A stretch of DNA of 64,000 nt from an uncultured Solirubrobacterales bacterium (GTDB taxonomy: Bacteria > Actinomycetota > Thermoleophilia > Solirubrobacterales > 70-9): the NCBI GenBank assembly GCA_963800285.1, contig CAWDAL010000013.1, positions 227,395 to 291,394 of the forward strand. The letters run 5' to 3'. Position 1 is the stretch's first letter, and the number at the start of each line of letters is the position of its first letter. Made by a program: the position numbers and the translations under genes. Under the pieces are notes generated by a model. The model ran no database searches and had not been told where the DNA came from. It was given only the letters and a program-made list of their open reading frames with translations. This document shows, piece by piece, positions 3 through 63,210 of this stretch.

Positions 3-359
3 GTGGTCGGGACCGCGCAGTTCTCATCGACGGTGAACCTCTACTCGGATTCGGCCTGCCACACGCTGATCGGAAGCGGCACCTCCGACGAGTTCGCCTT
101 CCCGGGCATCCAGGTGCAGGTCCTCGACAACACGGCCACCGAGATCTATGCCAATGACGCTGTCGCCGGCATCAACTCGACCTGCACGCCGACGCCGCTC
201 ACCTATCTCCAGGAGACCCCGGCCGGGGTCCATGGGAAGGGCTTCAACCTGAAGGCGGCCAAGCGCCGCTGCAGGCGGAAGTTCCACGGCAAGGCGCGCC
301 GCAAGGCGCGCCACCGGTGCCTCAAGCGCGCGGTCAGCAAGTCGCGGAAGCTGGGCTAG
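3..359 (+). CDS. 3' end of a gene entering from upstream of the window; hypothetical (probably exported) protein ending in a polybasic Cys-containing tail
   Basis: Frame is open from the window edge, with strong G/C third-position bias and a stop at 357-359. Tail is KRRCRRKFHGKARRKARHRCLKRAVSKSRKLG. No family recognised. Confidence 0.45.
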   Translation: MVGTAQFSSTVNLYSDSACHTLIGSGTSDEFAFPGIQVQVLDNTATEIYANDAVAGINSTCTPTPLTYLQETPAGVHGKGFNLKAAKRRCRRKFHGKARRKARHRCLKRAVSKSRKLG

Positions 360-2909: not shown

Positions 2910-3461
2910 TTAGGCAGGCTGCGCCGCCGGGATCAGCTGGCGCTCCTCGAGGAGGGCCAGGATCTTCGTGGCCGACTCCTCGGCGGACTCGTGCTCGGTG
3001 TCGAGGGTGAGCTCAGGATTGAGCGGCGGCTCATACGGGTCGGAGACGCCGGTGAACTCCTTGATCTCGCCCTTGAACGCCTTCTCGTAGAGGCCCTTCA
3101 CGTCGCGCTCGGCGCAGACCTCGACCGAGGCCTTGACGAAGACCTCGATGAAGCGGTCGCCCATCGTCTCGCGAGCCTCGTCGCGGATCTCGCGGTAGGG
3201 CGAGATCGCGGCCGTGATCACCGGGACGCCGTTGCGGGAGAGCAGGTCAGCCACGAAGGCGATCCGGCGGATGTTGGTATCGCGGTCCTCCTTCGAGAAA
3301 CCGAGCCCCTTGGAGAGGTTCTCGCGCACGACGTCGCCGTCGAGCACCTCGATCCGCGAGCCGCGGTCGCGCAGCTCGCTCTCCACGAGGTGGGAGATCG
3401 TCGTCTTGCCCGCGCCCGAAAGCCCGGTGAACCAGAGGGTGAAGCCCTTCTCGTCAGCCAT
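2910..3461 (-). CDS. cysC: adenylylsulfate (APS) kinase
   Basis: P-loop [11 protein letters not shown] and [11 protein letters not shown] motifs, 183 aa. Overlaps the sat stop by 8 nt, which suggests translational coupling. Confidence 0.92.
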
Positions 3462-4539
3462 TTGACTGCTGCTCCTTTGCGTATTCGTCGATCAAGATCT
3501 GAGCCACCTCGGGGCGGCTGAACTCCTGCGGCGGCTTTTCGCCGTTGCCGAGCATCTCCCGCACCTTCGTGCCGGACAGGAACACGTGGTCGTCGGGGCC
3601 GTGCGGGCAGGTCTTGCCCGACGCCATCCCCTCGCACTTGTTGCACCAGAAGGTGTGCTCGAAGAAGAGGGGCTGGATGCCGAGCTTGTCGATGTCCAGG
3701 TCGTCGAAGATCTTCTGCGCGTCGTAGGTGCCGTAGTAGTCACCGACGCCGGCGTGGTCGCGGCCCACGATGAAGTGGGTGCAGCCGTAGTTCCGGCGGG
3801 CGATCGCGTGGAGGACCGCCTCGCGCGGGCCGGCGTAGTGCATCTTCGAGGGGAAGACGTTGAGGATCACCCGGTCGTCGGGGTAGTAGTCCTCCATCAG
3901 CACCTCGTAGCAGCGCATCCGCACCTCAGCCGGGATGTCGCCCGCCTTGGTCTTGCCGATCAGCGGGTGGATCATCAGACCGTCCGTGATCTCCAGAGCC
4001 GTCTTGGTGACGTGCTCGTGGGCGCGATGGATCGGGTTGCGGGTCTGGAAGGCGACGATGCGCTTCCAGCCGCGGTCCGCGAAGGCCTTCTTGGACTCCT
4101 CGGGGGAGAGATAGCGCTTGGTGAATGCCTCCTCGTGGTCGGGGAGCTCGTCGACCTCGTAGGTGCCGGCGATGCAGCGCGCGCCCTCCTCGAAGATGGC
4201 GGCGACGCCGGGATGCTCCTTGTCGCCGGTGCCGTAGACGTTCTCGGCCTCGGCGTCGAGGTCCCGCTCGAAGATCTCGGTGACGTTGAGCCGGCCCAGG
4301 GGCTTGCCCTCGTCGCTGGAGACCTCCACCGTGTCGCCCTCGGAGACGTCGAGGCCGGTCGCGAGGGTGATCGGGATCGGCCAGTACTCGCCGCTGGTGA
4401 GCGTCATGTTCTCCACGACGCTCTTCCAGTCCTCGGAGCCCTGGGGGCCGGTGAGCGGGGCGAAGCCGCCGTTGCCGATCATCTCGAAGTCGGCGGTCTG
4501 GCGGTCGGTCAGTTGGAGCTTGAGAGCGGTCTGGGTCAT
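3454..4539 (-). CDS. sat: sulfate adenylyltransferase (ATP sulfurylase)
   Basis: [12 protein letters not shown] and [11 protein letters not shown] signature motifs, 361 aa. Confidence 0.92.
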
Positions 4540-7466: not shown

Positions 7467-8354
7467 CTAGCCCTTCTTGCGCTTCTTCCGCAGCTTGATG
7501 TTCTCGTGCTGCGTCGCGAGGGTTCCGCCGGTGGGCGTGAACCGGACGTTGAAGCCGACCCGGGCCTTGCCCTTCTTGTCGAGCTTCCTGCGGACGTTCG
7601 CCTTTGGCTTGATCACCAGCTGCACCTCGCCCGGCGCCGAGACCGTCGGCGGTCCGACGACCTTGATCCCCTTGTGCGTGTAGAGGAGCGTCCCGGGGTT
7701 GGGGACGGTCATCGTCACGATCGCCTTCCCCTTCTTCTTGTTCTTCTTCACCTTCCCGAAGGTGATCGCGTTGGCGGGCTCGATCGTGGCCTGGACGAGG
7801 GCCTCGCGAGCGCCGTCCGTGCCTTCGACGTGCCGCGGGGCGCCATCGGCGAGCGGGGGCAAGTTCCAGTAGCCCATCGTCGCGCCCGGGTTGACTCCGA
7901 GCACGAGGTTGGCGTTCGGGCTCTGCAACCCCACGGTGTCACCCAGCGCGATCGGAACCAAGGTGAGAATGGGCGGCGTCGCCTCGGGCGGCGAAACCGG
8001 GGTGTAGTTGCTCGGAGCGCTGCCTCCGGTCCCAATGAAGGTGCCGGCGCCGGCTGGGCGCAGGATCCGGAGCTGGATACCGACCGCGGTGTTGCCGGCT
8101 CCGAAGCGCCAGCTCGTCACCGTGCCGTTGACCGGGGAGACCAGTCCGCCCGCCGCGACGTTCGCAGCGGGCATGCCGATGTTGACGACGGTGCACGGGA
8201 CCGTGCATTCGCCCGCGCTCCCGTTGTTGTCGCTGGCGGGCGTCGACAGGTTGCTCCCGATCGTCACCGACGCCTGGGCCGTGCCGGCGAAGAGAAGCCC
8301 TGTGACCGCGATGGCGGCCACCATTGCGAGGTGTTTTCTCCTCCCCTGCTTCAT
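7467..8354 (-). CDS. exported hypothetical protein with Lys-rich C-terminus
   Basis: Signal peptide MKQGRRKHLAMVAAIAVTGLLFAGTAQA. High GC3. Ends ...NIKLRKKRKKG. No family recognised. Confidence 0.6.
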   Translation of the reverse strand: MKQGRRKHLAMVAAIAVTGLLFAGTAQASVTIGSNLSTPASDNNGSAGECTVPCTVVNIGMPAANVAAGGLVSPVNGTVTSWRFGAGNTAVGIQLRILRPAGAGTFIGTGGSAPSNYTPVSPPEATPPILTLVPIALGDTVGLQSPNANLVLGVNPGATMGYWNLPPLADGAPRHVEGTDGAREALVQATIEPANAITFGKVKKNKKKGKAIVTMTVPNPGTLLYTHKGIKVVGPPTVSAPGEVQLVIKPKANVRRKLDKKGKARVGFNVRFTPTGGTLATQHENIKLRKKRKKG

Positions 8355-8413: not shown

Positions 8414-9361
8414 ATGACCCAGATTCCGGTGATCTCCGGCCAGGCTGTGCTCGAGGCGATCGATCCGCTGACCGCGATCGATCGCACCCGCGAGGCCTTC
8501 GAGCGCTACGCGCGCGGCGATTGGGAGATGCCCGCGAAGGTCTATCTCGACAGCCCGCCGTATGGCGACTTCAGGGCAATGCCGGCCCGCGGCGACGGGA
8601 TGGCCCTGCTCAAGTGGGTGACCTCGTTTCCGGGCAACAGCTCGAAGGGCCTGCCGGTGGTCCGCGGCGAGGTGCTCCTCTCCGACGCCGAGACGGGAGA
8701 GGAGCTCGCCGTGATCGAGTGCTCGTCGGTCACCTCCCTGCGGACCGGAGCGGCGGCGGCCGTATCGGCTCAGGTGCTGGCCCTGGACGACGCGAGCTCG
8801 GTCGGCATCGTCGGCTGCGGCGTGAACGGCGCCTGGTCCGCGCGGTGCCTCGCCGCCGCCGGCTACGAGGAGGGTGTCTGCGCCGACGTCCGCCCCGAGA
8901 TCGCGAGCGCGCTGGCCGAGGAGCTCGGCTGGCGGGTCGGCGACCGGGCGGAGGCGGCCGCCCAGGACGTGGTGGTGACCGTCACGCCGGGGAACGAGCC
9001 GGTGATCCTGGCGGGCGAGCTCTCGCCCGGCCAGCACCTCGCCGTGCTCGGCGCCGACGCTCACGGAAAGCAGGAGGTCCAGCTCGACGCGATCAGCCGC
9101 TGCACCCTGTTCTGCGACGAGTGGGAGCAGGCGAGCGCCGGCGGCGAGCTCGCGAACGGCGTCGAGGCGGGGACCATCTCGCGCGCCGACGTCACTCAGA
9201 TCGGGGAGGTGCTGACCGGGGAGTCGACCTGGACGCGTTCCGACGGCGAGATCACCCTGTTCGACTCGACCGGGCTCGCGATCCAGGATCTGGCCATCTG
9301 CCGGGCGGTCTACGAGCGCTGGCGAGAGGGCGACGTCGAGGCCGCGATGGTCATCCTCTGA
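8414..9361 (+). CDS. ornithine cyclodeaminase / mu-crystallin family protein
   Basis: DFRAMPA...LLKWVTSFPGN and Rossmann GIVGCGVNGAW motifs typical of the OCD/mu-crystallin family, 315 aa. Confidence 0.85.
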   Translation: MTQIPVISGQAVLEAIDPLTAIDRTREAFERYARGDWEMPAKVYLDSPPYGDFRAMPARGDGMALLKWVTSFPGNSSKGLPVVRGEVLLSDAETGEELAVIECSSVTSLRTGAAAAVSAQVLALDDASSVGIVGCGVNGAWSARCLAAAGYEEGVCADVRPEIASALAEELGWRVGDRAEAAAQDVVVTVTPGNEPVILAGELSPGQHLAVLGADAHGKQEVQLDAISRCTLFCDEWEQASAGGELANGVEAGTISRADVTQIGEVLTGESTWTRSDGEITLFDSTGLAIQDLAICRAVYERWREGDVEAAMVIL

Positions 9362-10205
9362 GGGCCAGAGCGGCCGCTCGCTTCTTGTGCTTCTTCTTGT
9401 GCTTCTTCTTGCACTTCTTTCCGTGCTTCCCCTTCTTCTTGGCCGTCGCGGCGTGGTGCTTCTTCTTGTGCTTCTTGCACTTCCTCCGGGGCTGGCGAGC
9501 AGGGGGCGGGGTCGGGGTCGGGGCCGGGGGCGGAGCATCGGTGATCGTGACGTTGTCGAGGTCGTAGGTCTCGCCGGTGCGATCCGGCCCGACATCCACC
9601 ATCACGGCCACCATGTCGCTCGCTGAGATCAGGGTCTTGAACTGCTGCTGCGTCGGTGGGGTGCAGCTCCCACCGAGGTAGGGGCAGATCGCCCACGCCG
9701 GATCCAGTCCGTTCCTCGCCGTTTCGGTCAAGGGGATCGAGAGGTGGTGATAGGTGGTCCCCGATACCTCCGGAATGAGTCCATCGAGATACGCGGAGCC
9801 CGGCGGCAGCAGCAGCAACTCGGCGCCGAACATCGGACTGACGTCCGGAGAGCGGAGATCGAACGAGCCGGTGCCGCCGTAGTTCGCGGCCATCGGCGAG
9901 ACAAAGGGGCTGTAGAGGTAGAGGAGATTGCAGGGCCCGGTGCCGCCCCGGCATCCAGACTCGCCCCCGGTGTCCTTGGTCGTCAGGCGGCCACCTGGAT
10001 TGCCGCCGCTGGGGGAGAAGCCGGCGGGGCTGAAAGTCGCGCCGTTGTCCTGGCTCTGCTGCCAGCCCTGGTTGCCGCCGCTGAACGTGTACGCGAGCGG
10101 CGTCGCGTTCGCAGATCCGGCAAAGGCGAGCACCGCGGCCGCTGCCAGCAGCGCGGTGAAGCCGATCCTCCTGATCGTTCCCTGCGTGCGGGTCCATCCG
10201 CACAT
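9351..10205 (-). CDS. exported hypothetical protein with Pro-rich linker and long K/H/C polybasic tail
   Basis: Signal peptide MCGWTRTQGTIRRIGFTALLAAAAVLAFAGSANA. C-terminus is PPPAPTPTPPPARQPRRKCKKHKKKHHAATAKKKGKHGKKCKKKHKKKHKKR. Overlaps the 3' end of the convergent OCD gene by 11 nt. Confidence 0.6.
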   Translation of the reverse strand: MCGWTRTQGTIRRIGFTALLAAAAVLAFAGSANATPLAYTFSGGNQGWQQSQDNGATFSPAGFSPSGGNPGGRLTTKDTGGESGCRGGTGPCNLLYLYSPFVSPMAANYGGTGSFDLRSPDVSPMFGAELLLLPPGSAYLDGLIPEVSGTTYHHLSIPLTETARNGLDPAWAICPYLGGSCTPPTQQQFKTLISASDMVAVMVDVGPDRTGETYDLDNVTITDAPPPAPTPTPPPARQPRRKCKKHKKKHHAATAKKKGKHGKKCKKKHKKKHKKRAAALALRG

Positions 10206-10343
10206 GGCTCAACCCCCTGGTCGGTTGTCGGCCAGGGTAGGCCGCGTGGGCGACCGATTCAACCCGCGCGGCCGTCCAGGTGACGAGTCAAGGGGCGGCG
10301 GGCGCCGCCCCGCCGCCGCCCGCCGCCACCTCTCCTCCCAAGC

Positions 10344-10553
10344 TCAGTCGACGTCAGAGCCCTCGACCAGGAACGCGACCCGGACGTGGGCACGCCACTC
10401 GTCGAGGTTCTCACCGCGCAGCCCCGTCGAGACGACGTCGATCGCGCGGATGTTCCGAAGCTTGCCCTGCGCCTGCTTCAGCGCCTGCTGTGCGGCGTCA
10501 TCCGAGGACTTCTTGGAGCTTCCGACCAACTCGATGATCTTTACGACGGCCAC
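10344..10553 (-). CDS. dodecin family flavin-binding protein
   Basis: A 69-aa protein, MAVVKIIELVGSSKKSSDDAAQQALKQA...VAFLVE, with typical dodecin size and sequence pattern. Confidence 0.85.
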   Translation of the reverse strand: MAVVKIIELVGSSKKSSDDAAQQALKQAQGKLRNIRAIDVVSTGLRGENLDEWRAHVRVAFLVEGSDVD

Positions 10554-10632
10554 GGGCCCTCCTCTTCGTCAGGCAAGCGATGGGTTTGCGGCAAGTGTTC
10601 TATTGCACTTGCGCGCCGCGCACAAGCCCGGC

Positions 10633-10869
10633 TCAGGCGCCGGGCGCGATCCCCCAGCCGCCGCCGAGGCCCAGGCGCGCGCTGACCCCCTCGCGCAGGG
10701 CCGCCTGCTGCCAGCGGCTCACCTCCGCCGGGCGGGGGCCCGGAGCCGTCTCCCAGAGGAAGCGCTCGAGCGCGGCTGCGATTGCGGCGGCCTCGTCGGG
10801 CCGGGCTGCCGCGCTCTCGATCTCGATCTGGGGGCGCGGCGGCTGCCGCCTGCCGTTGCCATCGGGCAT
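10633..10869 (-). CDS. small hypothetical protein (weak resemblance to acyl-CoA carboxylase epsilon subunits)
   Basis: 78-aa ORF with good GC3 bias. The DEAAAIAAALERF...SRW pattern is only loosely ACC-epsilon-like. No strong support. Confidence 0.3.
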   Translation of the reverse strand: MPDGNGRRQPPRPQIEIESAAARPDEAAAIAAALERFLWETAPGPRPAEVSRWQQAALREGVSARLGLGGGWGIAPGA

Positions 10870-10967
10870 GCGGAGAGGATAGTTCGGCTGGACCGAGCGC
10901 CGTCGGAAACGCTGAAGGCCGGGGAAGCGTGAGGATCGCGTGAGCGTTCGCCGCTATTCCTCGTGCC

Positions 10968-12559
10968 ATGAACCGCAGGCCCAGGTGGAGCCACGTGGTG
11001 ATCTCGCCGATGCGGATCAGGGTCGCGCTGGGCCTCGTCGCGCTGGCCATCGCTCTGGTGCCGGTGGCCTCGGCGCAGGCGGCCTCCGGCACCTGGGAGC
11101 GAGCCTGGGGACAGAACGTCGACGGCGCCGCGCCCGGATTGGGCTTCGAGATCTGCACCGTGGCGGCCCGATGCCAGGCGACGAATCCGGCCACCGGCGA
11201 TCTGGGTGGCGAGATGGACCACTCCTCCGCGATCGCGGTGGACGGCACCGGCAACGTCTATGTGGCCAATTCCAACTTCAACCGGATCGACAAGTTCGAC
11301 TCCTCCGGAAACTTCATCCGCGCCTGGGGCAGGGACGTCAATGAGAGCAACGTCTTCACCGGCTTCGAGAGCTGCGTCGCCGGCGTGGACACCTGCCAGG
11401 CCGGGACGACCGGAACCGGCAATGGGATGATGAGCTCGCCTGCGGGCATCGCCGTCGGCCCGAATGGGGAGGTCTACGTCTCTGACGCGGGCAACACCCG
11501 GATCCAGGAGTTCACCGCGAACGGGAACTTCATCCGCATGTGGGGCAAGGACGTGGTCCTCAGCGGCATCGAGAACAGCGGCACCGGCTTCGAGATCTGC
11601 CAGATCAGCACCTGCAAGGCGGGGGCGGCATCGACCGGGCTGATCGGCGAGATGTCCACCCCGTTCGGGCTGGCGACCGGACCCGGCGGAAACGTCTATG
11701 TCGCCGACGCCTCCAACAACCGGATCCAGAAGTTCGATGAGGAGGGGGTGCCGATCCGGGCCTGGGGCAAGGACGTCGTCAGCACCGGGCCCGACGACAA
11801 GGCAACCAGCTTCGAGGTCTGCCGCGCCGGAATCGACACCTGCAAGGCGGGGATCACCGGAGGACTCGAGGGGGAAATGAACCTCCCGGCCGCGGTCGCG
11901 GTGGACGGCGGCGGATCCGTGTACGTGACCGACGGGAACAACAACCGGGTCCAGAAGTTCTCCCCCTCGGGTGCGTTCCAGCTGATGTGGGGCAAGGACG
12001 TGATCAACGGCGGAGGCATCAACTTCGAGATCTGCCACGAGGAGACCGATATCTGCAAGACGGGCGATGGCTCGGGACACCTCGGGGGCGAGCTCAACTT
12101 CCCGGTCGGCGTCGCGGCCGACGCAGCGGGAAACGTCTACATCGGCGAGGAGGACAATTCCCGCATCGACAAGTTCGGGTCGGACGGGAGCTTCCAGACG
12201 CTCTGGGGAGAGGACGTGGACGCCGTCGGCCCGGGCACCGGCTTCGAGATCTGCACGGTCGCGGCGGACTGCAAGGCGGGTCCGAACCTCGCACCCGTTC
12301 CTCGGGCGGCGAGGTCGTCCTGCCTGATGGCCTCGCCGCGGACGCCGCCGGCAGCCTCTACGTCGCCGACCGCTTCAACAATCGAGTCGAGAAGTTCGCC
12401 GACCTGCCTCCGACGAGTGTGCCTCCGCCGAGCGCCGCTCCGCCGGCGCCCACTCCGAGTACCCCGGCGCCGAAGAAGAAGAAGTGCAAGAAGAAGAAGC
12501 ACAAGCACAGCGCCTCGGCGACCGCCAGGAAGAAGTGCAAGAAGAAGCGGAGGCGGTAG
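10968..12559 (+). pseudogene. exported six-repeat NHL beta-propeller protein with polybasic tail; frame broken by a 1-nt deletion near 12280-12312
   Basis: Signal peptide ...ALVPVASAQA. Six ~72-aa repeats (..WG.DV...GFE.C....C.AG....GE......A.D..GNVYV.D..N.R..KF). The last repeat continues in the frame of ORF 11987..12559 (SGGEVVLPDGLAADAAGSLYVADRFNNRVEKF...KKKKCKKKKHKH...KKCKKKRRR). Confidence 0.75.
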
Positions 12560-14154: not shown

Positions 14155-14164
14155 GGGGAGGACC

Positions 14165-15883
14165 CTAGAAGAACGCGCCGCCGCGGTACTCGCCGAAGAC
14201 GTCGCGCATCGCGTTGCAGACGTCGCCGATCGAGCCGCCGGCGCGCAGCGCCTCCTTGATCGGAGGCAGCAGGTTGCCGTCGCCCTGCGCGACATCGCGG
14301 AGAGACTGCAGCTTCTGGTCGAGCTCGGCCTGGTCCCGGGACTCCTTGAACTTCTTCAGTCGCGCGAGCTGGCGCTTCTCGGCCTCGGGATCGACCTTGA
14401 GGATGTCGACGTCGTCGACCACATCGGTGACGTACTTGTTGACGCCGACGATGATGTCCTGACCGGTGCGGTAGCGCTCGTGGTAGCTGGCGGCCGATTC
14501 CTCGATCTCGCGCTGCATGAATTCGAGGGCGTTGACCGAGCCGCCGAGGTCCTCGACCTTCTGCATCAGCTCCCAGGAGCGCGCCTCGATCTCGTCGGTG
14601 AGCGACTCGATGAAGTAGGAGCCGGCGAATGGGTCTACCGTGTCCGCAACGCCTGACTCGTGAGCCAGCACCTGTTGGGTGCGGAGCGCGATGCGGGCGG
14701 AACGCTCTGTGGGGAGGGCGAGGGCCTCATCGAAGCCGTTGGTGTGGAGGGACTGGGTCCCACCGGCGACGGCGGCGAAGCCCTGCAGCGCCACGCGGAT
14801 GATGTTCACCTCGGGCTGCTGGGCCTGGAGGGTGACCCCGCCGGTCTGGGTGTGGAAGCGGATCATCTGGGCCTTCTCGTTGGTGGCCCCGAAGCGCTCC
14901 TTCATGATGTTCGCCCACATCCGCCTGACGGCCCGGAACTTGGCGATCTCCTGGAAGACGTTGTTGTGGCCGTTGAAGAAGAAGGCGAGCCGCTGGCCGA
15001 ACTTGTTCACGTCGAGCCCGGCGTTGATGCCCGCCTCCACGTAGGCGATCGCGTTGGCGAGAGTGAAGGCGACCTCCTGCACGGCCGAGCAGCCCTTCTC
15101 GCGGATGTGGTACCCGCTGATCGAGATCGTGTTCCACTTCGGCACGTTCTCGTTGCAGTACTCGAAGATGTTGGTGGTGAGCCGCATGGTCGGCTCGGGC
15201 GGGTAGATGTAGTTGCCGCGCGAGATGTACTCCTTGAGCACGTCGTTCTGGACGGTGCCGCGCAGCTCCTTGGAGTCGACGCCCTGCTCCTCGCCGACCA
15301 GCTCGTAGAGCAGCAGCAGGATCGCGGCGGGGGCATTGATCGTCATCGAGGTCGAGACGTCGGACAGCGAGATCTGGTCGAAGCAGATCCGCATGTCCTC
15401 GATCGTGTCGATCGGGACGCCGGTCCGGCCGACCTCGCCCTGGCAGAGCGGGTCGTCCGAGTCGCGCCCGAGCTGCGTGGGCAGGTCGAAGGCCATGGAG
15501 AGGCCGGTCGAGCCGTGCTCGGTCAGGTAGCGATAGCGCTCGTTCGTGTCCTCCGGGCTGGCGAAGCCGGCGTACTGGCGCATCGTCCAGAGCCGGTCGC
15601 GGTACATGCCCTTGTGGATCCCGCGGGTGAACGGATACTCGCCGGGCTCGCCGAGCCGCTCCTCGAGCCCGGGCTTGACGTCGTCCTCCTCGTAGAGGCG
15701 CTTGATCTCGATCCCGGAGTCGGTGATCTCGTGGTCCTCGCGCTCCTCCTCCGGGAGCACGGGGGCGATGTAGCGATGGAGGTCCTCGTCGACCGCGGCC
15801 TTCTGCTCGGCCTCGGGCGCGCCGTTCGACGGCGGGCCGTCGGTCCCCTCGGTCTTCGCCTCGCCCTTTGGCCTGGTGGCCAT
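14165..15883 (-). CDS. methylmalonyl-CoA mutase family, catalytic (large) subunit without a fused B12-binding domain
   Basis: [56 protein letters not shown] and [11 protein letters not shown] motifs. Tyr and Arg at the positions that distinguish MCM from isobutyryl-CoA mutase. Ends at ~572 aa before any DxHxxG B12 domain. Confidence 0.9.
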
Positions 15884-57262: not shown

Positions 57263-59629
57263 TCAGGCCTGCTTGCGCCGGTGCTTGTGATGGTGCTTGT
57301 GCGCGGCGCGGACCTTGAACGGCTTCGTCCCGCAGCGGAAGAAGTAGGGCAGCGCGCCCAGCGGGGCGGGGACGGTGGCGGTGCCCGGTCCGGCGAACCG
57401 CTGTCCGCTGGGCTCGTGCACCCAGCAGCCGCGCGGGAGCGCCACCGAGCGCGAGGTATCGCCCTTGGTGACCACGGGCGCCACCAGCACGTCGGCCCCG
57501 AGCATCCACTCCTGGTCGCGGCCGGAGACGGGCGCCTCCGGCGCGCTCAGCCAGAGGGGGCGGGTGACCGGCATCCCGGTCCTGCGCCCCTTCTTCCACA
57601 GCCTCCGCATCAGCGGCAGCGCCCGCTCGTGCAGGTCCGCCATCGCCTTCCAGCGGGCGAGGGTGGCGTCACCGTAGGCCCAGGGCATGCGGACGCCGGT
57701 GGAGGACGAGTTGTGAACGCGGAAGTACGGCGTGAGGGCGGCCCATTCGCTCCAGCGGTCGTACAGCTCCTCGCTGGGCGGCCCGGTCAGGGTGTCGATG
57801 TAGCCCCCGATGTCGGTCGTGTAGCCGAAGGCGCCGCCGACCGCCCGATTGAGCATGTCGGGGGCCAGCGATCGCAGCCCGGAGGCGGCTTCCCAGTCGA
57901 CCGTCTCGTCGCCTGGGAAGTTGCCCATCTCGGAGGCCGCGCTGCCGGGCCGGCCGCTGTAGCCCGCTCGGGTGAAGAACCAGATCGGATCGTGCCTTGG
58001 GTGCTTCGCTCCCCAGTGATCGAGGATGCGACGTGAGACCCGGTGGTAGAGAACCGGATAGCGGTTGTGCATCGCCGCCCCGGTGCTGCCGTTGGCGAAG
58101 TGCATGCCGTCCTGGACCTGCTCGCCGAAGTCCTGCATGAACCCGTCGGCCCCGAGCCCGATCAGCAGATTGAGTCGCCGCCGCCACCAGGCCACCGTGG
58201 CCGGCTTGGTGAAGTCGAGCAGCGTCGCGGGGGAGTCGCCGTTGCCGCCGAACTCGTAGGGCGCACCGCTCGCGGTCGTCGCGACCAGCCCGAGCCGCCT
58301 GGTCTCCTCGAAGTCGCCGGGCGGCTGGGTGGCGAGTGCGTCGTCGGAGACGTAGGCGCGGACATAGAGGATCGCGTGGATCCCCATCGCGTGCAGGCGC
58401 GCGATCACCGAGCGGACATACCCGAGGTCGAGCATCCCCCAGCCCTCGAACCCGTAGGCGGAGATGTGCATGTCGTAGCGGCGGATGTCGGCCAGGTCCT
58501 GCTCGATCTTGGCCCGGTAGGTGTCGGGGTTCTCGGACGGCGGAGCCCCCGGGAGGGCCGGGGACTTGACGGCCCGCGACAGCGTCGGCCCCTCGGCCCA
58601 GCTCGGCGGCAGGCGATGGCGGCCCGTCACCGAGGTCAGCTCCCGGATCGCGCGGCGGCGGCCGCGCGCCGGGAACACCGTGTAGTCGAGGTGGCCGGAG
58701 CTCGCCTGAACCTGCCAGGCGTCGGGCCGGTCGTTCGCCATCCGCCAGCGCGAGCGCTCGCTCTGGTTGAGGAGGAAGCCGTAGCCGCGGGATGAGACGA
58801 ACTCCGCCTGCGGGTAGTAGGCGGCGTTCATGCCGTTCGGGAAGAGGTAGCGCTCGAAGCCTCCGGGCAGCTCGGTGGGGCTCGGGATCCCGCCCAGGTC
58901 GGCGATGCTGTACGAGGTGCCGGAGCCGACCAGCAGCGGGAACAGCGCCAGGCCCGGCACCAGCGTCTCCGAGCCGCCGAGGTTCTCCTGGACCACGTCG
59001 CCGTAGAGCTTCTCGCCGCGCTTGTCCGTGGTCCCGTGCCTGCCGCCGAACCCGTGGAAGCCCTCGCCGGGCGCGGTGGCGAAGGAATCGCCGAGCGTGA
59101 TCACCCCCGCAGGGGAGCTGGGACGCACACGGACGCGGATGCCGCTTGCGCGGTCGGGCTCGATCCGGGCGATCAACCGCCGGCCGGGCTCGTCGGTGGC
59201 CAAGGTGAGCCGAACGCCCTTGCCGCGCCGCTTCGCGGAGATCGCCCGCCGGGCCGCGTAGACCGTCCCGGAGCGGCGATCGAAGAGGGTGTTCCCGTTC
59301 CAGAGCCCGGACTCCCACTGCGGGTGCAGCTCCGTCCCGACCTCGTAGGTGAGCGGGGCGTAGACGGCGTTGTCGGGGTGGCGCTCGAGCGTGAAGGGCT
59401 CGGGATCGTCGGTGCTGGGAAGCGCCGCCGGAGTCGTCGATGCCGGCGCGCGCAGCTCGCGAAGGACGGTGTGTCCGCGCGACCGGAAGACGAGCCGGAA
59501 GGGCGCCCGGTCGATCACGGCGCGGGCGGCGCCGTTGGTGACCACGATCCGCTTCCCGGTCAGCTTGACCGCCGCACCGGCGGTCGCCGGAATGGCGACC
59601 GCGGCGATCGCAAGCAGCGACGCCGCCAA
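57263..59629 (-). CDS. exported glycoside hydrolase family 31 (alpha-glucosidase/xylosidase-like) with K/H-rich C-terminal tail
   Basis: [11 protein letters not shown] (catalytic region). YNRYP-type segment MHNRYPVLY. Signal-like [18 protein letters not shown]. Ends [17 protein letters not shown]. The TTG start is doubtful (see findings). Confidence 0.85.
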
Positions 59630-59677: not shown

Positions 59678-60622
59678 CTAAGACGCCTCAGCCGCGAGCG
59701 TCTCCTCGAGTCCGGAATCGATCGTGCGCTTCGCCCGCCAGCCGAGACGCTCGGCGGCGAGCGTGGTGTCGAGCACGGTGCGGTCGATCTCCCCGGCGCG
59801 GGCGGGAGCCGGCTCCGGCTCGAAGTCGCCGCGGCCCGCCAGCCGCCCGATCTGCTCGGCGAGCTCGAGCACGGTCGTCTCGACCCCGGTGCCCGCGTTG
59901 ATCGGCCCGCTCTCGCCGCTCCCCTCCATCGCGAGCAGGCCGTCGACGACGTCGGCCACGTGGATGTAGTCGCGGGTCTGCTTGCCCGTGCCGAAGACCG
60001 TGGGCCGCCCGCCGTCGCGGGCCAGGGCGCAGAAGATCGCGACCACGCCCGCCTCCGTCGCCGGGTCCTGCCGCGGGCCGTAGACGTTGCCGAGGCGAAG
60101 CGTCCCCGCCGAGAGCTCGCGCGTGCGCGAATAGAGACCGAGGTAGCCCTCCGCGGCCAGCTTGCTCTGCCCGTACACGGAGAACGGCTCGCAGGGCGCC
60201 GTCTCGGCGAAGGGAAGCTCGTCTGGCCGATCGGCTCCCTCTCCATATATGGCGCCCCCGGTCGAGGTGAAGACGAGGCGAGATGACCCGCCGCGGACCG
60301 CCGCCTCAAGCACGTTCACCGTGCCCACCACGTTGAGGCGGGCGTCGAAGCCCGGATCCGCCATCGAGCGCCGCACGTCGATCTGGGCGGCGAGATGGAA
60401 GATGCTGTCGGGCGCGAAGCCCTCGATCGCCTCGAAGACGGCCTGGGCGTCGGCTACGTCGAGCTCGGTGAGCCGCACCCCCGCCTCGAGCGCGCCCGCA
60501 AGGTTCTCCCGCTTGCCGCTCGAGAGGTCGTCCAGCACCAGGACCTCGTCTCCACGCGCGGCCAAAGCATCCACCAGGTGCGAGCCGATGAAGCCCGCGC
60601 CGCCTGTCACCGCAGATTTCAC
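59678..60622 (-). CDS. NAD-dependent epimerase/dehydratase (UDP-glucose 4-epimerase-like)
   Basis: VTGGAGFIGSHL, FTSTGGAIYG and YGQSK motifs. Confidence 0.88.
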   Translation of the reverse strand: MKSAVTGGAGFIGSHLVDALAARGDEVLVLDDLSSGKRENLAGALEAGVRLTELDVADAQAVFEAIEGFAPDSIFHLAAQIDVRRSMADPGFDARLNVVGTVNVLEAAVRGGSSRLVFTSTGGAIYGEGADRPDELPFAETAPCEPFSVYGQSKLAAEGYLGLYSRTRELSAGTLRLGNVYGPRQDPATEAGVVAIFCALARDGGRPTVFGTGKQTRDYIHVADVVDGLLAMEGSGESGPINAGTGVETTVLELAEQIGRLAGRGDFEPEPAPARAGEIDRTVLDTTLAAERLGWRAKRTIDSGLEETLAAEAS

Positions 60623-60750
60623 GCAGGAGAGACTACGGGCGGAACGTAATAGGCAGCCGAGGACCCCCTGCTACTCTCGCCGACCGCATCGGCCCCTTTC
60701 GACGTATATGTAGGGGCATCCATGGTCGCGGCTACCGTGAAGGGCCAGAT

Positions 60751-63210
60751 ATGCGACTGATAGTCACCGAGAAGAACAACAGCGCGAAGAAGATCGCCGA
60801 GATTCTGAGCGGCGGAACCGCCAAGGAGGGCGCTTCCTACAAGACGCCCTACTACGAGTGGTCCGACGATCACGGCAATCACATGACGATCGGTCTCAAG
60901 GGCCACGTCCTCAATCCCGCCTTCCCGGAGTCCTACAACAACTGGCAGGAGACGAATCCGCGCGACCTGATCGACGCGGACCTGATCAAGGAGCCGACCG
61001 ACAAGAACGTCGTGCGGGCCCTGAAGAAGGTGGCCGCCGATGCCGACGACCTCATCATCGCGACGGACTACGACCGCGAGGGCGAGCTGATCGGGCTCGA
61101 GGCCCTGCAGGAGATCGTCGAGGCGAACCCAGATCTGGCGACCGCCGAGGGCGTCCACGACGACGGCACCCCCGTGAAGCGCGCCCGCTACTCCGCACTC
61201 ACCAAGGACGAGATCGAGCGCGCCTTCAACAACCTCGACGAGCTCTCGATGCCGCTTGCGAACGCCGGCGCGGCGCGCCAGGACATGGACCTGATCTGGG
61301 GCGCGACGCTGACCCGCTCGGTCTCGATGGCCACACGGCGCTTCGGGTCCAACTTCCTCTCGGTCGGCCGTGTGCAGAGTCCCACCCTCGGCCTGATCGT
61401 CCAGCGCGAGCTCGAGCGCCGCGCGCACGTGCCCGTCCCCTTCTGGGAGGTGACGGCGACCTTCGCTTACATCCCATCAACGGCCGCCACAAGCACCGCG
61501 GCCGAATCATTCGTCGCCGAGCACACCACCGACAAGTTCTGGGAGGAGAAGGAGGCCGAGGCCGCGGTCGCCAACTCACAATCTCCTGGCACGGTTGTGG
61601 AGATCACGGCGCGGAAGAACACCCGCAAGCCGCCCACTCCCCTCAACACCACCGCCTTCACCACCGACGCGTCCAGCCGCCTGGGCATCACCCCCTCGCG
61701 CGCGATGCGGATCGCCGAGGACCTCTACATGGACGGCTACATCTCCTATCCGCGAACCGACAACACCGTCTACCCGAGCTCGCTCGACACGAAGGAGCTC
61801 GTGAAGCAGCTGGTGGCGGTGGACGACTTCAAGGCGGCCGAGTTCCTGCTCGATGGGCGGACGCTGGAGGCGACCCGCGGCAAGAAGGAGACGACGGACC
61901 ACCCGCCGATCTACCCGACGCAGGCGGTCAACCCGAAGCGGCTCGAGGCCCGATCCGAGGCCCATCGCCGGGTCTACGAGCTGGTCGCACGCCGCTTCCT
62001 CGCCACGTTCTCGCCGCCGATGATTAGTGAGGGGACCAGGGCGAACATCGTCACGGCCAAGGGCGAGGCTTCGGCCGAATCGGGAGAGACCTACTTCGTC
62101 CGCGGATCCGTCGTGGTCGACCCGGGCTTCGCCGCGATCTACACCTACGCCCGCTCCGCCGACACCGAGATCCCGAAGCTCGAGGAGGGTCAGGAGCTCA
62201 CCATCGAGAGCGTCGACCTGGAGGGCAAGGAGACGCCCCCGCCGCCCCGGATCAGCCAGGGCAAGCTGATCGAGATGATGGAGGAGGCCGGCCTCGGCAC
62301 CAAGGCGACTCGCGCGGACATCATTCAGAAGCTCTACGACCGCGGCTACGTCTTCAACAACCCGCCGGAGCCCTCGGAGACCGGCATCGCGATGTCGAAG
62401 GCGTTCGAGAACTACGTCCCGCGGATGGCGACGCCCGACATGACCGCCGAGATGGAGGCGGAGATGGATCAGATCGCCGCCGGCGAGATGACCAAGGACG
62501 ATGTTCTGCGGGACAGCCGCGACATGCTTCGCTCGGCCTTCGACGAGATGGGCGACGACGTCAAGACCGAGGACGAGGACGCCAAGTGGCGCAAGTTCGC
62601 CCGCGAGGTGTGGGCCGGGATGGACCAGGACCGAATCCTCGGCCCCTGCATCGTCTGCGAGGAGGCCGGCCGCAAACAGGAGGACGGCTCCCCGAACCTG
62701 CTGCGGATCATCAAGGCGCGCAAGTCGGGCAAGCGCTTCGTCGGCTGCTCCGGCTGGGACGGCGACAATCCGGACTCGCCCGATTCCTGCGACCAGACCT
62801 TCCCACTGCCGCAGCGCGTGCGCGGCCTCTACAAGATCGAGGAGGTCTGCTCGGTCTGCGGCCGGACGCCGCGACTGCAGGTGGTGCCCTGGCGCGGGCG
62901 CCCCTGGAAGCTCTGCCTGAACGACGAGTGCCCCTCGATGGCGGAGATGAAGCGCCGCCGCGCCGAGCGCGAGGCCGCCAAGGCCGCGAAAGAAGCCGCC
63001 GAGGCCGCCGAGAAGGATGGGGCGGCGAAGGACGCTGAGGTCGATCCCGACGAGGCCGCGAAGGAGGCGGAGAAGATCGCCGGTCAGGCGTCGGCCACGA
63101 AGGTCAAGCGCGCTACGCGAGGCAACGGCGCGAAGGCCAAGAACGGCGCGAAGAAGAACGGCGCCAAGTCGGGCAACGGCTCGAAGGCCAAGCCCCGCGC
63201 GAAGAGCTAG
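60751..63210 (+). CDS. type IA DNA topoisomerase of the Topo III / archaeal TopA style, with C-terminal zinc ribbons and Lys/Ala-rich tail
   Basis: TOPRIM MRLIVTEKNNSAKKIAEIL...IIATDYDREGE. Active-site GYISYPRTDN. CIVCEE...FVGCSGW, CSVCG...CLNDEC. Tail is AKAKNGAKKNGAKSGNGSKAKPRAKS. Confidence 0.9.
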   Translation: MRLIVTEKNNSAKKIAEILSGGTAKEGASYKTPYYEWSDDHGNHMTIGLKGHVLNPAFPESYNNWQETNPRDLIDADLIKEPTDKNVVRALKKVAADADDLIIATDYDREGELIGLEALQEIVEANPDLATAEGVHDDGTPVKRARYSALTKDEIERAFNNLDELSMPLANAGAARQDMDLIWGATLTRSVSMATRRFGSNFLSVGRVQSPTLGLIVQRELERRAHVPVPFWEVTATFAYIPSTAATSTAAESFVAEHTTDKFWEEKEAEAAVANSQSPGTVVEITARKNTRKPPTPLNTTAFTTDASSRLGITPSRAMRIAEDLYMDGYISYPRTDNTVYPSSLDTKELVKQLVAVDDFKAAEFLLDGRTLEATRGKKETTDHPPIYPTQAVNPKRLEARSEAHRRVYELVARRFLATFSPPMISEGTRANIVTAKGEASAESGETYFVRGSVVVDPGFAAIYTYARSADTEIPKLEEGQELTIESVDLEGKETPPPPRISQGKLIEMMEEAGLGTKATRADIIQKLYDRGYVFNNPPEPSETGIAMSKAFENYVPRMATPDMTAEMEAEMDQIAAGEMTKDDVLRDSRDMLRSAFDEMGDDVKTEDEDAKWRKFAREVWAGMDQDRILGPCIVCEEAGRKQEDGSPNLLRIIKARKSGKRFVGCSGWDGDNPDSPDSCDQTFPLPQRVRGLYKIEEVCSVCGRTPRLQVVPWRGRPWKLCLNDECPSMAEMKRRRAEREAAKAAKEAAEAAEKDGAAKDAEVDPDEAAKEAEKIAGQASATKVKRATRGNGAKAKNGAKKNGAKSGNGSKAKPRAKS

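Follow-up and report, generated by a model that had tools for sequence, protein, structure and literature searches.

Several described systems bear comparison with the element reported here. The C-terminal sorting signals (LPXTG with sortase, PEP-CTERM with exosortase, GlyGly-CTERM with rhombosortase, PGF-CTERM with archaeosortase, and MYXO-CTERM) are lineage-specific terminal tags on unrelated signal-peptide proteins, usually lie past a low-complexity linker and include a basic cluster, all of which they share with our element. The C-terminal anchor of PrtB from Lactobacillus delbrueckii and the Lys/Ala/Pro-rich, heparin-binding C-terminus of mycobacterial HBHA are thought to bind polyanions (teichoic acids and sulfated glycans) by charge; these tails lack an invariant Cys pair and each belongs to a single protein, which in the case of HBHA is also without a signal peptide. 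A third group comprises the non-covalent wall-binding modules LysM, SLH, GW/SH3-like, CWB1/CWB2, WXL and peptidoglycan (PG)-binding (PMC5817068). The same review, which covers protein surface display in monoderm bacteria, makes no mention of the terms lysine-rich, cationic, electrostatic or PrtB (PMC5817068). Here we analyse a stretch of 64,000 nucleotides (the window) from an uncultured Solirubrobacterales bacterium (contig CAWDAL010000013.1, positions 227,395 to 291,394), which encodes a two-Cys polylysine module on exported proteins. The module is real and conserved in uncultured Solirubrobacterales, and is apparently undescribed.

The window has a G+C content of 66–73%. A six-frame scan of the 64 kb for Lys-rich tracts returned only 9366-9497 on the reverse strand, 12464-12556 on the forward strand and 7473-7508 on the reverse strand, and each lies at the 3' end of an open reading frame (ORF) that starts with a signal peptide. 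Because Lys makes up 61% of module residues against 2.8% in called genes of the lineage, chance is excluded as the source of these tracts. An initial annotation, made from the window sequence, had grouped five basic tails as one kind. All five are present, in frame and where it placed them, and the two-Cys layout that it saw in three of them (ORF 3..359, ORF 9351..10205 and the NHL propeller ending at 12559) is indeed one conserved module. The tails of the 295-aa protein (7467..8354) and of a GH31 enzyme are different objects, and we return to them below.

For the 284-aa exported protein encoded by ORF 9351..10205, public metagenomes hold ∼118 relatives at 37–69% identity, and orthologues keep the tail. 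Exactly two tail Cys are present in 109 of 111 orthologues, C243 and C265 are invariant across 93 aligned orthologues, as are the flanking Lys, and the Cys–Cys spacer has a mode of 14 residues. Nearly all relatives retain the consensus PPPP..KKPKK-C-KKKH(K/R)RAAAAKK(G)K-C-KKKRRAAAxxLRG, the final Gly being the C-terminal residue. The Lys tract had been taken as the end of this protein; it is in fact followed by AAALALRG, kept in orthologues as [LF]RG. Within the family, K/(K+R) is 0.77 in the tails and 0.25 in the passenger, the part of the protein that carries the module.

This conservation refutes the possibility, to which we attach next to no weight, that the tails are out-of-frame translations of low-complexity AAG repeats or products of assembly error. 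Indels of long-read metagenome-assembled genomes (MAGs) do occur near module genes, as seen in read-through to ...QRLTTGASTSPSRQRS, in broken genes of a near-identical metagenome contig and in a frameshift of the NHL gene of the window. However, ∼110 orthologues retain the module in the correct reading frame with its Cys invariant, and they derive from JGI, ENA, NCBI and Logan assemblies that are independent of one another, some of them short-read. Furthermore, carrier genes were called at a G+C content at third codon positions (GC3, on which our gene calls were based) of at least 0.80, and 1272 of the 1310 module Lys codons are AAG. In the 284-aa family itself, orthologues P0012, P0026, P0048, P0064 and P0108, and those in loci L006 and L117, either read through to that same ending or have the AAG tract translated as EE/RR; these variants are frameshifts in or just past the Lys tract, probably arising from long-read indel errors. 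Tracts of this kind are prone to error and readily annotated wrongly.

Across its carriers the module spans 20–40 residues, ∼60% of them Lys, with a net charge of +14 to +23 and two Cys, each set in KKCKKK and separated by 9–19 residues. Its composition (K 61%, A 10%, C 8%) includes almost no hydrophobic or aromatic residues and no acidic residues, and K/(K+R) is 0.77–0.90, compared with 0.25 in passengers and background. Unrelated passengers repeatedly carry one of three sub-types: A, KKCKKKHxRAAAAKKCKKKRR; B, PTGQRAAALKKCKKK..KKCKKKAxKLPV, ending at the stop codon; and C, KKCKKGFKKVKGKCKKK, which is hairpin-like and is also found in tandem in loci L078 and L110. The proteins of these two loci (1027 and 206 aa, respectively) carry tandem arrays of 3–5 Cys-bounded basic hairpins (CKKGQLRKGKRCVKK...), an arrangement which suggests that the type-C module may be able to multiply like a binding repeat.

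The initial annotation knew of no described signal of this form, and we likewise found no model or paper describing one. Pfam and NCBIfam searches with the isolated tails (E<=10) gave no match other than a sub-threshold EB/TIL-like Pfam match to the L078 array, a PDB sequence search with consensus modules gave none, and a literature search found no paper describing the module. A protein search with the tail alone also gave no match, returning four candidates that share words with it, and low-complexity words are probably not indexed there.

Two invariant Cys, together with a modest enrichment of His (4.2% vs 1.8%) that is prominent in the 284-aa tail of the window, would suit a metal-binding or redox element, metal binding being one of the roles proposed in the initial annotation. 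We consider such a role highly improbable, given that neither orthologues nor sub-types keep the His, that two thiols amid Lys ammonium groups would make a poor cation site, and that Lys dominates the module. Of the roles that had been proposed, electrostatic anchoring fits these data best and metal binding via Cys and His worst.

In order to describe the distribution of the module, one genome per species (185,579 species) was scanned with the DNA motif AAGTGCAAGAAG-N18-48-AAGTGCAAGAAG, encoding KCKK...KCKK; loci were thus chosen by the module motif itself, and the counts are lower bounds. The scan returned at least 119 stretches. Among the matches listed, 103 lie in MAGs of Solirubrobacterales or other Actinomycetota (96 labelled Solirubrobacterales, and 7 labelled only Actinomycetota, Actinomycetes or Actinobacteria), and the other 16 are chance matches or members of an unrelated class of acidic CKKxC repeats in Verrucomicrobiota. 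All module carriers among the matches listed are MAGs from soil-type collections, where the lack of cultured isolates carries no weight. Several dispersed copies can occur on one contig, for example at least five strict matches on a contig of 2.0 Mb. Neighbour genes, which were not picked by the motif, give a further measure: 13 of 623 match the strict protein regex and ∼13 more are looser two-Cys variants, ∼4% in total, and polybasic termini without two Cys are rare among the 623.

The Verrucomicrobiota class (in Luteolibacter, Akkermansiaceae and Haloferula; loci L005, L044, L053, L056, L058, L066, L067, L087, L095, L105 and L107) consists of small signal-peptide proteins built of tandem TLxAGKCKKKCDEEEAEEES-like repeats, in which basic-Cys blocks alternate with acidic blocks, and is unrelated to the Solirubrobacterales module. 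A scan of viral contigs yielded no phage lysin or receptor-binding protein with the module, whose use there would have marked the host envelope as its target, only chance matches and protamine-like proteins of low-GC giant viruses. The latter, on contigs L124, L126, L128 and L129 (IMG/VR bins), are ∼250-aa SRKRKS-repeat proteins, protamine-like with Cys, that end in ..RKKCKKSQSRSSKSGRCRKKCKKSEKRRRKSGKCVKK.

The claim that the tail recurs on unrelated exported proteins is borne out well beyond the window, where BLAST groups the 87 module proteins into 38 unrelated clusters. A Pfam scan of 83 of these proteins recognised 44 extracytoplasmic-type families, among them Big_9, cadherin-like, NHL, GDPD, GSDH, FG-GAP, beta-helix, Laminin_G_3, trypsin, P-domain and RCC1. 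The module is also enriched among signal-peptide proteins, as the initial annotation anticipated: a signal-peptide-like N-terminus was called in 53 of 71 complete module proteins and in 135 of 565 other genes (odds ratio 9.4, p=7e-17). Of the 18 negatives, several do begin with a signal-peptide-like sequence that escaped the heuristic, and others look like ORF fragments. In the window, signal peptides had been assigned to all four tail-bearing proteins with a visible N-terminus; this is correct for the 295-aa, 284-aa and NHL proteins, while the N-terminus of the GH31 enzyme in the window is without a basic n-region, its homologues having clear signal peptides.

The range of passengers bears on whether the module could be a membrane-active or antimicrobial warhead, a disulfide-looped polycation directed against the anionic envelopes of competitors that either delivers the fused enzyme or is released from it. 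The module resembles one-disulfide cationic peptides in sequence, and the Pro-rich linkers are potential cleavage sites. However, with at least 38 unrelated passengers, metabolic enzymes and adhesins among them, with almost no hydrophobic or aromatic residues and hence no amphipathic character, and with ∼4% of neighbouring genes carrying the module, too many for a toxin arsenal, we think this very unlikely.

The position of the module within its carriers is variable: 73 of the 87 modules are C-terminal, 12 directly follow the signal peptide and two are internal. Those at the N-terminus lie between the signal peptide and a poly-Pro linker (for example in L004, L019, L029, L063, L111 and L121), such that the charge block is only 7–10 residues past the cleavage site; in the 14 residues just upstream of C-terminal modules, Pro accounts for 31% and Ala and Thr for 16% each. 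One family of ∼200-aa proteins that ends in ..GGAPIPAGYCP (L007, L039, L063, L069, L103, L111 and L122) has the module at the mature N-terminus. Its genes occur as tandem paralogues in some MAGs, and those in L039, L063, L069, L103 and L111 neighbour genes for an MMPL transporter, a 92-aa membrane protein, RecR and DnaX.

Since the module works at either end and in tandem copies, it must cross the membrane and function there as an independent unit on the outer side. N-terminal placement and tandem copies also argue against a C-terminal sorting signal of the sortase type; the tails were first described as a candidate sorting or anchoring signal, and the sorting half of that description is not supported. 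A cytoplasmic tether that arrests translocation is ruled out, being incompatible with N-terminal modules.

A related possibility is that the module is a recognition tag for a sorting or processing enzyme (a sortase-like enzyme, a protease or a thiol transferase), which would recognise the Cys and the end motifs and either cleave the protein or attach it covalently. Like known sorting signals, the module is proteome-wide, confined to a lineage and mostly at the termini of diverse exported proteins, and the invariant Cys and the conserved LRG and KLPV ends, which go beyond charge, are in its favour. Against it are the absence of a hydrophobic segment, the 12 of 87 proteins with the module at the mature N-terminus, and the tandem arrays. 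No enzyme co-occurring with the module, which the initial annotation had proposed to look for, was detected: the genes around module loci include no recurrent protease, oxidoreductase or transferase, and neighbour-gene clustering gave no candidate partner, the recurrent genes (MMPL, RecR, DnaX, an AMP-binding enzyme and a deacetylase) being housekeeping or syntenic. This last is the weak point of the argument, given that adjacency is not required. Likewise, we found no sortase gene among the neighbouring genes of module loci, a search that did not cover whole genomes. Overall, we consider an enzyme tag unlikely.

Other means of retention are scarce in module proteins. A transmembrane (TM)-like segment beyond the signal peptide is present in 1 of 54, and lipobox-like sites occur at the background rate (5/54, vs 16/155 controls). 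Lipidation at a lipobox was rejected, the module Cys being flanked by Lys (KKCKKK) and the lipobox rate being that of background. There are no LPXTG-like signals in 717 complete called genes (the window plus Solirubrobacterales loci, ∼0.9 Mb), and ∼90% of module proteins have no other anchor. The passengers are acidic, with a median charge of −5.5 per 100 aa (interquartile range −6.8 to −4.2), or ∼−14 in total, and are joined to a module of ∼+17. In the 284-aa family the median charges are −16 for the passenger and +18 for the tail (−10 and +25 in the protein of the window), and in the NHL protein of the window they are −30 and +17.

Taken together, these observations establish the anatomy, conservation, taxonomic range, passenger diversity, export link, position independence and charge asymmetry of the module. 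What we infer from them is that a disulfide forms, that polyanions are bound and what the target is. The explanation that we prefer, and that we hold with about as much confidence as doubt, is an electrostatic anchor: a polycationic tag, probably closed by a disulfide, that would bind polyanions and so hold its proteins at the cell surface. Export would proceed via the N-terminal signal peptide, with the bias for Lys over Arg keeping the charged segment translocatable. Arg has been found to be rate-limiting in Sec transport, whereas Lys can cross deprotonated (PMC9110029); the preference for Lys in a high-GC and otherwise Arg-favouring genome fits this finding, which would matter most for the N-terminal variants. 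Once outside, the two Cys would oxidise to an intramolecular disulfide closing a loop of 9–19 residues, thereby forming a polycationic hairpin that would be compact and resistant to proteases. Where exported proteins of an aerobic actinobacterium have an invariant Cys pair, a disulfide is the simplest explanation, and the exported proteins of aerobic Actinobacteria show an even-biased use of Cys, indicating disulfide formation, which in Actinobacteria is enzyme-catalysed (PMC2823432); the two further invariant Cys pairs of the 284-aa passenger also make a disulfide plausible. For a loop of +14 to +23 with no acidic and almost no hydrophobic residues, multivalent binding of polyanions is the one obvious activity, and the likeliest target of the hairpin would be the anionic polymers or lipids of the cell's own envelope. 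We favour retention on the own envelope because the module proteins mostly have no other anchor and many look like adhesins or scavenging enzymes. In this way otherwise anchorless enzymes and adhesins would stay at the cell surface, with their acidic passengers repelled and pointing outward.

Alternatively, the target may be external. The cationic tag could fix exoenzymes and adhesins to clay minerals, humic substances, extracellular DNA or an acidic biofilm matrix, or could bind the acidic passengers of neighbouring molecules to give a self-assembling coat. That all matches listed come from soil-type MAG collections accords with this, as does the combination of acidic passengers and cationic tails, which is what charge-driven self-association requires; the giant-virus protamine-like proteins of the same motif look, from their composition, like nucleic-acid binders. 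However, multi-domain passengers of the adhesin-like kind (Big_9, cadherin-like) can work only if attached to the cell, and the great majority of module proteins have no second anchor with which to achieve it. We regard an external target as rather unlikely.

Several points count against the electrostatic anchor. The organisms are uncultured, and binding, localisation and the disulfide are all read from sequence. The AlphaFold2 (AF2) models of the 284-aa family leave the tail unstructured, with a predicted local distance difference test (pLDDT) score of 41–55. There are sub-type motifs that go beyond charge, namely ..RRAAAxxLRG and, on unrelated passengers, PTGQRAAALKKCKKK..KKCKKKAxKLPV, both at the extreme C-terminus; these are unexplained by pure electrostatics and could indicate a specific partner. 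Anionic wall polymers in this lineage are assumed, not established. The gene and signal-peptide calls are crude heuristics applied to motif-selected loci. Finally, other predicted soluble exported proteins have a median charge of +1.5 per 100 aa (p=5e-11 vs passengers), a contrast with the acidic passengers that may be inflated by mis-called Arg-rich ORFs in the control set.

Actinobacteria of the order Solirubrobacterales are common in soil. A broader proposal, which we put forward only tentatively, is that the module is the main sortase-independent means of retaining exported proteins across this whole abundant soil order: a portable and probably disulfide-stapled charge anchor, on ∼4% of genes, whose acidic passengers would either be oriented on an anionic envelope or self-assemble as a charge-driven surface coat, maybe with a specific partner that reads the LRG and KLPV ends. 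A portable tag of 20–40 residues on dozens of unrelated exported proteins would constitute a new class of surface-retention element and could replace sortase anchoring in the lineage (0 LPXTG-type signals in ∼0.9 Mb). With the module as a simple marker, the surface proteome of these MAGs can be predicted. The module is also a natural test case for how a segment of +15 to +23 gets through Sec and for whether the Lys bias is the adaptation that permits it, and might be of use as a compact polyanion-binding affinity or immobilisation tag. The module has probably been overlooked because AAG tracts are low-complexity and are hidden by word indexes and composition filters, and because several long-read assemblies are frameshifted in or just past them.

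The features of the window are collected in the table below. In the 284-aa family, AF2 models the passenger as a beta-sandwich (pLDDT >90), a fold with weak laminin-IV/CBM-like matches, and the alignment reveals two more invariant Cys pairs there (C85/C92 and C174/C181). Dependence on Tat was rejected, twin-arginine motifs not being conserved in the family. In MAG loci the gene is syntenic with ornithine cyclodeaminase-like, sulfite/nitrite reductase-like and carboxyltransferase genes, an arrangement shared with the window that assigns it to the same order as these MAGs. The divergent 284-aa and NHL genes of the window are separated by a dodecin gene (PF07311 in L001, a contig described below) and a 78-aa ORF (10345-10870, reverse strand); the dodecin gene is conserved in syntenic MAG loci.

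The NHL gene is split in the window, with the propeller frame running from 10968 and the tail frame to 12559. A near-identical ENA metagenome contig, L001 (ERZ25039549 contig_32028), has an intact NHL gene of 520 aa with the tail in frame, and its reading ..APFLGGEV.. agrees with the LGGE of the other NHL repeats. The frameshift in the window reflects either recent loss of gene function, making this a pseudogene, or an error of sequencing or polishing. In L001 the ATP-sulfurylase and UDP-GlcNAc 2-epimerase genes (14158-14939 and 548-1251) are each split into two ORFs while the ATP-sulfurylase gene of the window (3454..4539) is intact, and thus the two assemblies differ in their indel errors. 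For conservation of the NHL tail the evidence is L001 together with an NHL protein in L010 that is 29% identical and bears a type-B module; a metagenome scan with the intact NHL protein and the pattern KKKKCKKK gave one distant relative among the matches listed. The nearest curated family of the NHL passenger is ScyF, which has a PEP-CTERM anchor at the equivalent end (NCBIfam), in keeping with an anchoring role for the module.

The partial ORF 3..359 has no Pfam or NCBIfam match as a 118-aa window fragment, the form that was scanned; the 292-aa version in L001 was not. Its link to the glucose/sorbosone dehydrogenase (GSDH, PF07995) family is only a lead, P0120 (PF07995) having matched via a similar tail only, and two PF07995 module proteins being present in other MAGs.

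As for the two tails that are other objects, AF2 models the 295-aa protein with a mean pLDDT of 91, and its residues ∼198–289 form a confident beta-sandwich plus helix, with pLDDT 97–98 through ∼289. Only ∼6 free residues extend past the final strand of this ∼95-aa domain, and all orthologues end in L[RK]KK[L]KKK, none with Cys. The domain, for which there is no Pfam model, is also carried by other passengers (P0222, and P0225, a GDSL lipase). The lineage thus has another cationic C-terminal module, this one folded; it is unrelated in sequence to the two-Cys module and may be a functional analogue of it. Among the nearest GH31 homologues listed, most have ...FFRCGxxPF as their C-terminus, the closest (62% identity) being one of them, and a few have other short unrelated extensions; the extension in the window is not conserved and not demonstrably part of the two-Cys system. 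A topoisomerase-I-like protein (60592-63207, forward strand) provides an internal contrast, being cytoplasmic with a Lys/Gly/Ala/Asn-rich C-terminal tail of a different grammar and without Cys.

Table. Location of the modules, their carrier genes and the other basic tails in the window.
Feature	Position	Strand	Evidence
Partial ORF 3..359: Arg-rich two-Cys variant at its end, KRRCRRKFHGKARRKARHRCLKR	261..329	+	Sequence
295-aa protein: folded basic C-terminal domain (+23); the 'tail' LRKKRKKG is 7470-7493	7470..7754	-	AF2, orthologues
284-aa exported protein gene: signal peptide, beta-sandwich passenger, Pro linker, module, AAALALRG end	9351..10205	-	ORF, orthologues, AF2
284-aa protein: signal peptide, MCGWTRTQGTIRRIGFTALLAAAAVLAFAGSANA	10104..10205	-	Cleavage region ...AGSASA/TPL conserved in alignment A2 (slash, cleavage site)
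284-aa protein: Pro/Thr/Ala linker, APPPAPTPTPPPARQP	9489..9536	-	Sequence; linker composition across loci
284-aa protein: two-Cys polylysine module, RRKCKKHKKKHHAATAKKKGKHGKKCKKKHKKKHKKR, 23 K+R, no D/E	9378..9488	-	Sequence, orthologue alignment
284-aa protein: family-specific end motif, AAALALRG	9354..9377	-	95/111 orthologues ending [LFVI][RK][GD]
NHL beta-propeller gene with module, frameshifted in the window	10968..12559	+	Pfam NHL E=5.6e-34; two ORFs in different frames
NHL gene: frameshift site, extra a 12293 and extra c 12307 vs L001	12290..12310	+	Alignment to L001
NHL protein: Pro-rich linker, LPPTSVPPPSAAPPAPTPSTPAP	12404..12472	+	Sequence
NHL protein: two-Cys polylysine module, KKKKCKKKKHKHSASATARKKCKKKRRR, 18 K+R	12473..12556	+	Sequence; in frame in L001
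GH31 enzyme: C-terminal extension, 17 aa, no Cys	57266..57316	-	Homologue comparison

How, then, does the module compare with the systems described at the outset? It differs from the sorting signals in having neither a signature motif nor a TM helix, and in occurring also at the mature N-terminus and in tandem; the basic part of a sorting signal is a short stop-transfer tail, whereas in the module it is the whole element. The three window tails contain no LPXTG-like pentapeptide, and the module lacks the hydrophobic stretch that, in a sortase-type signal, spans the membrane ahead of a short basic tail. For the exosortase-type signals (PEP-, GlyGly-, PGF- and MYXO-CTERM) there was no NCBIfam match to the tails at E<=10 and no TM helix. 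The view of the initial annotation that the tails are not LPXTG-, PEP-CTERM- or GlyGly-CTERM-like, the hydrophobic segment being absent, therefore stands, and the genes around module loci offer no partner enzyme of the kind that serves these signals.

Protamines, together with the protamine-like proteins of the giant-virus contigs, share with the module an extreme basic charge with interspersed Cys. Protamines are intracellular and use many Cys for intermolecular cross-links, and the giant-virus and protamine-like proteins are Arg/Ser-rich and lack the signal peptide, Pro-linker and passenger architecture of module proteins.

In function, by analogy, the module most resembles the non-covalent wall-binding modules and the Lys-rich tails of the PrtB/HBHA type. 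With the former it shares a modular nature, placement at either end, tethering by a linker and occasional repetition, as well as carriage by diverse exported enzymes and adhesins and a presumed role in non-covalent surface retention. Wall-binding modules are, however, folded domains of 40–80 residues with Pfam models, while the two-Cys module is a low-complexity polycation of 20–40 residues with none, and LysM, SLH, GW, CWB1/2, WXL and PG_binding are all absent from the 25 most frequent of the 44 Pfam families of module proteins. As in PrtB and HBHA, an exported or surface protein here carries a terminal tract rich in Lys; what sets the module apart is its invariant Cys pair, together with the fact that it is portable and used across the proteome.

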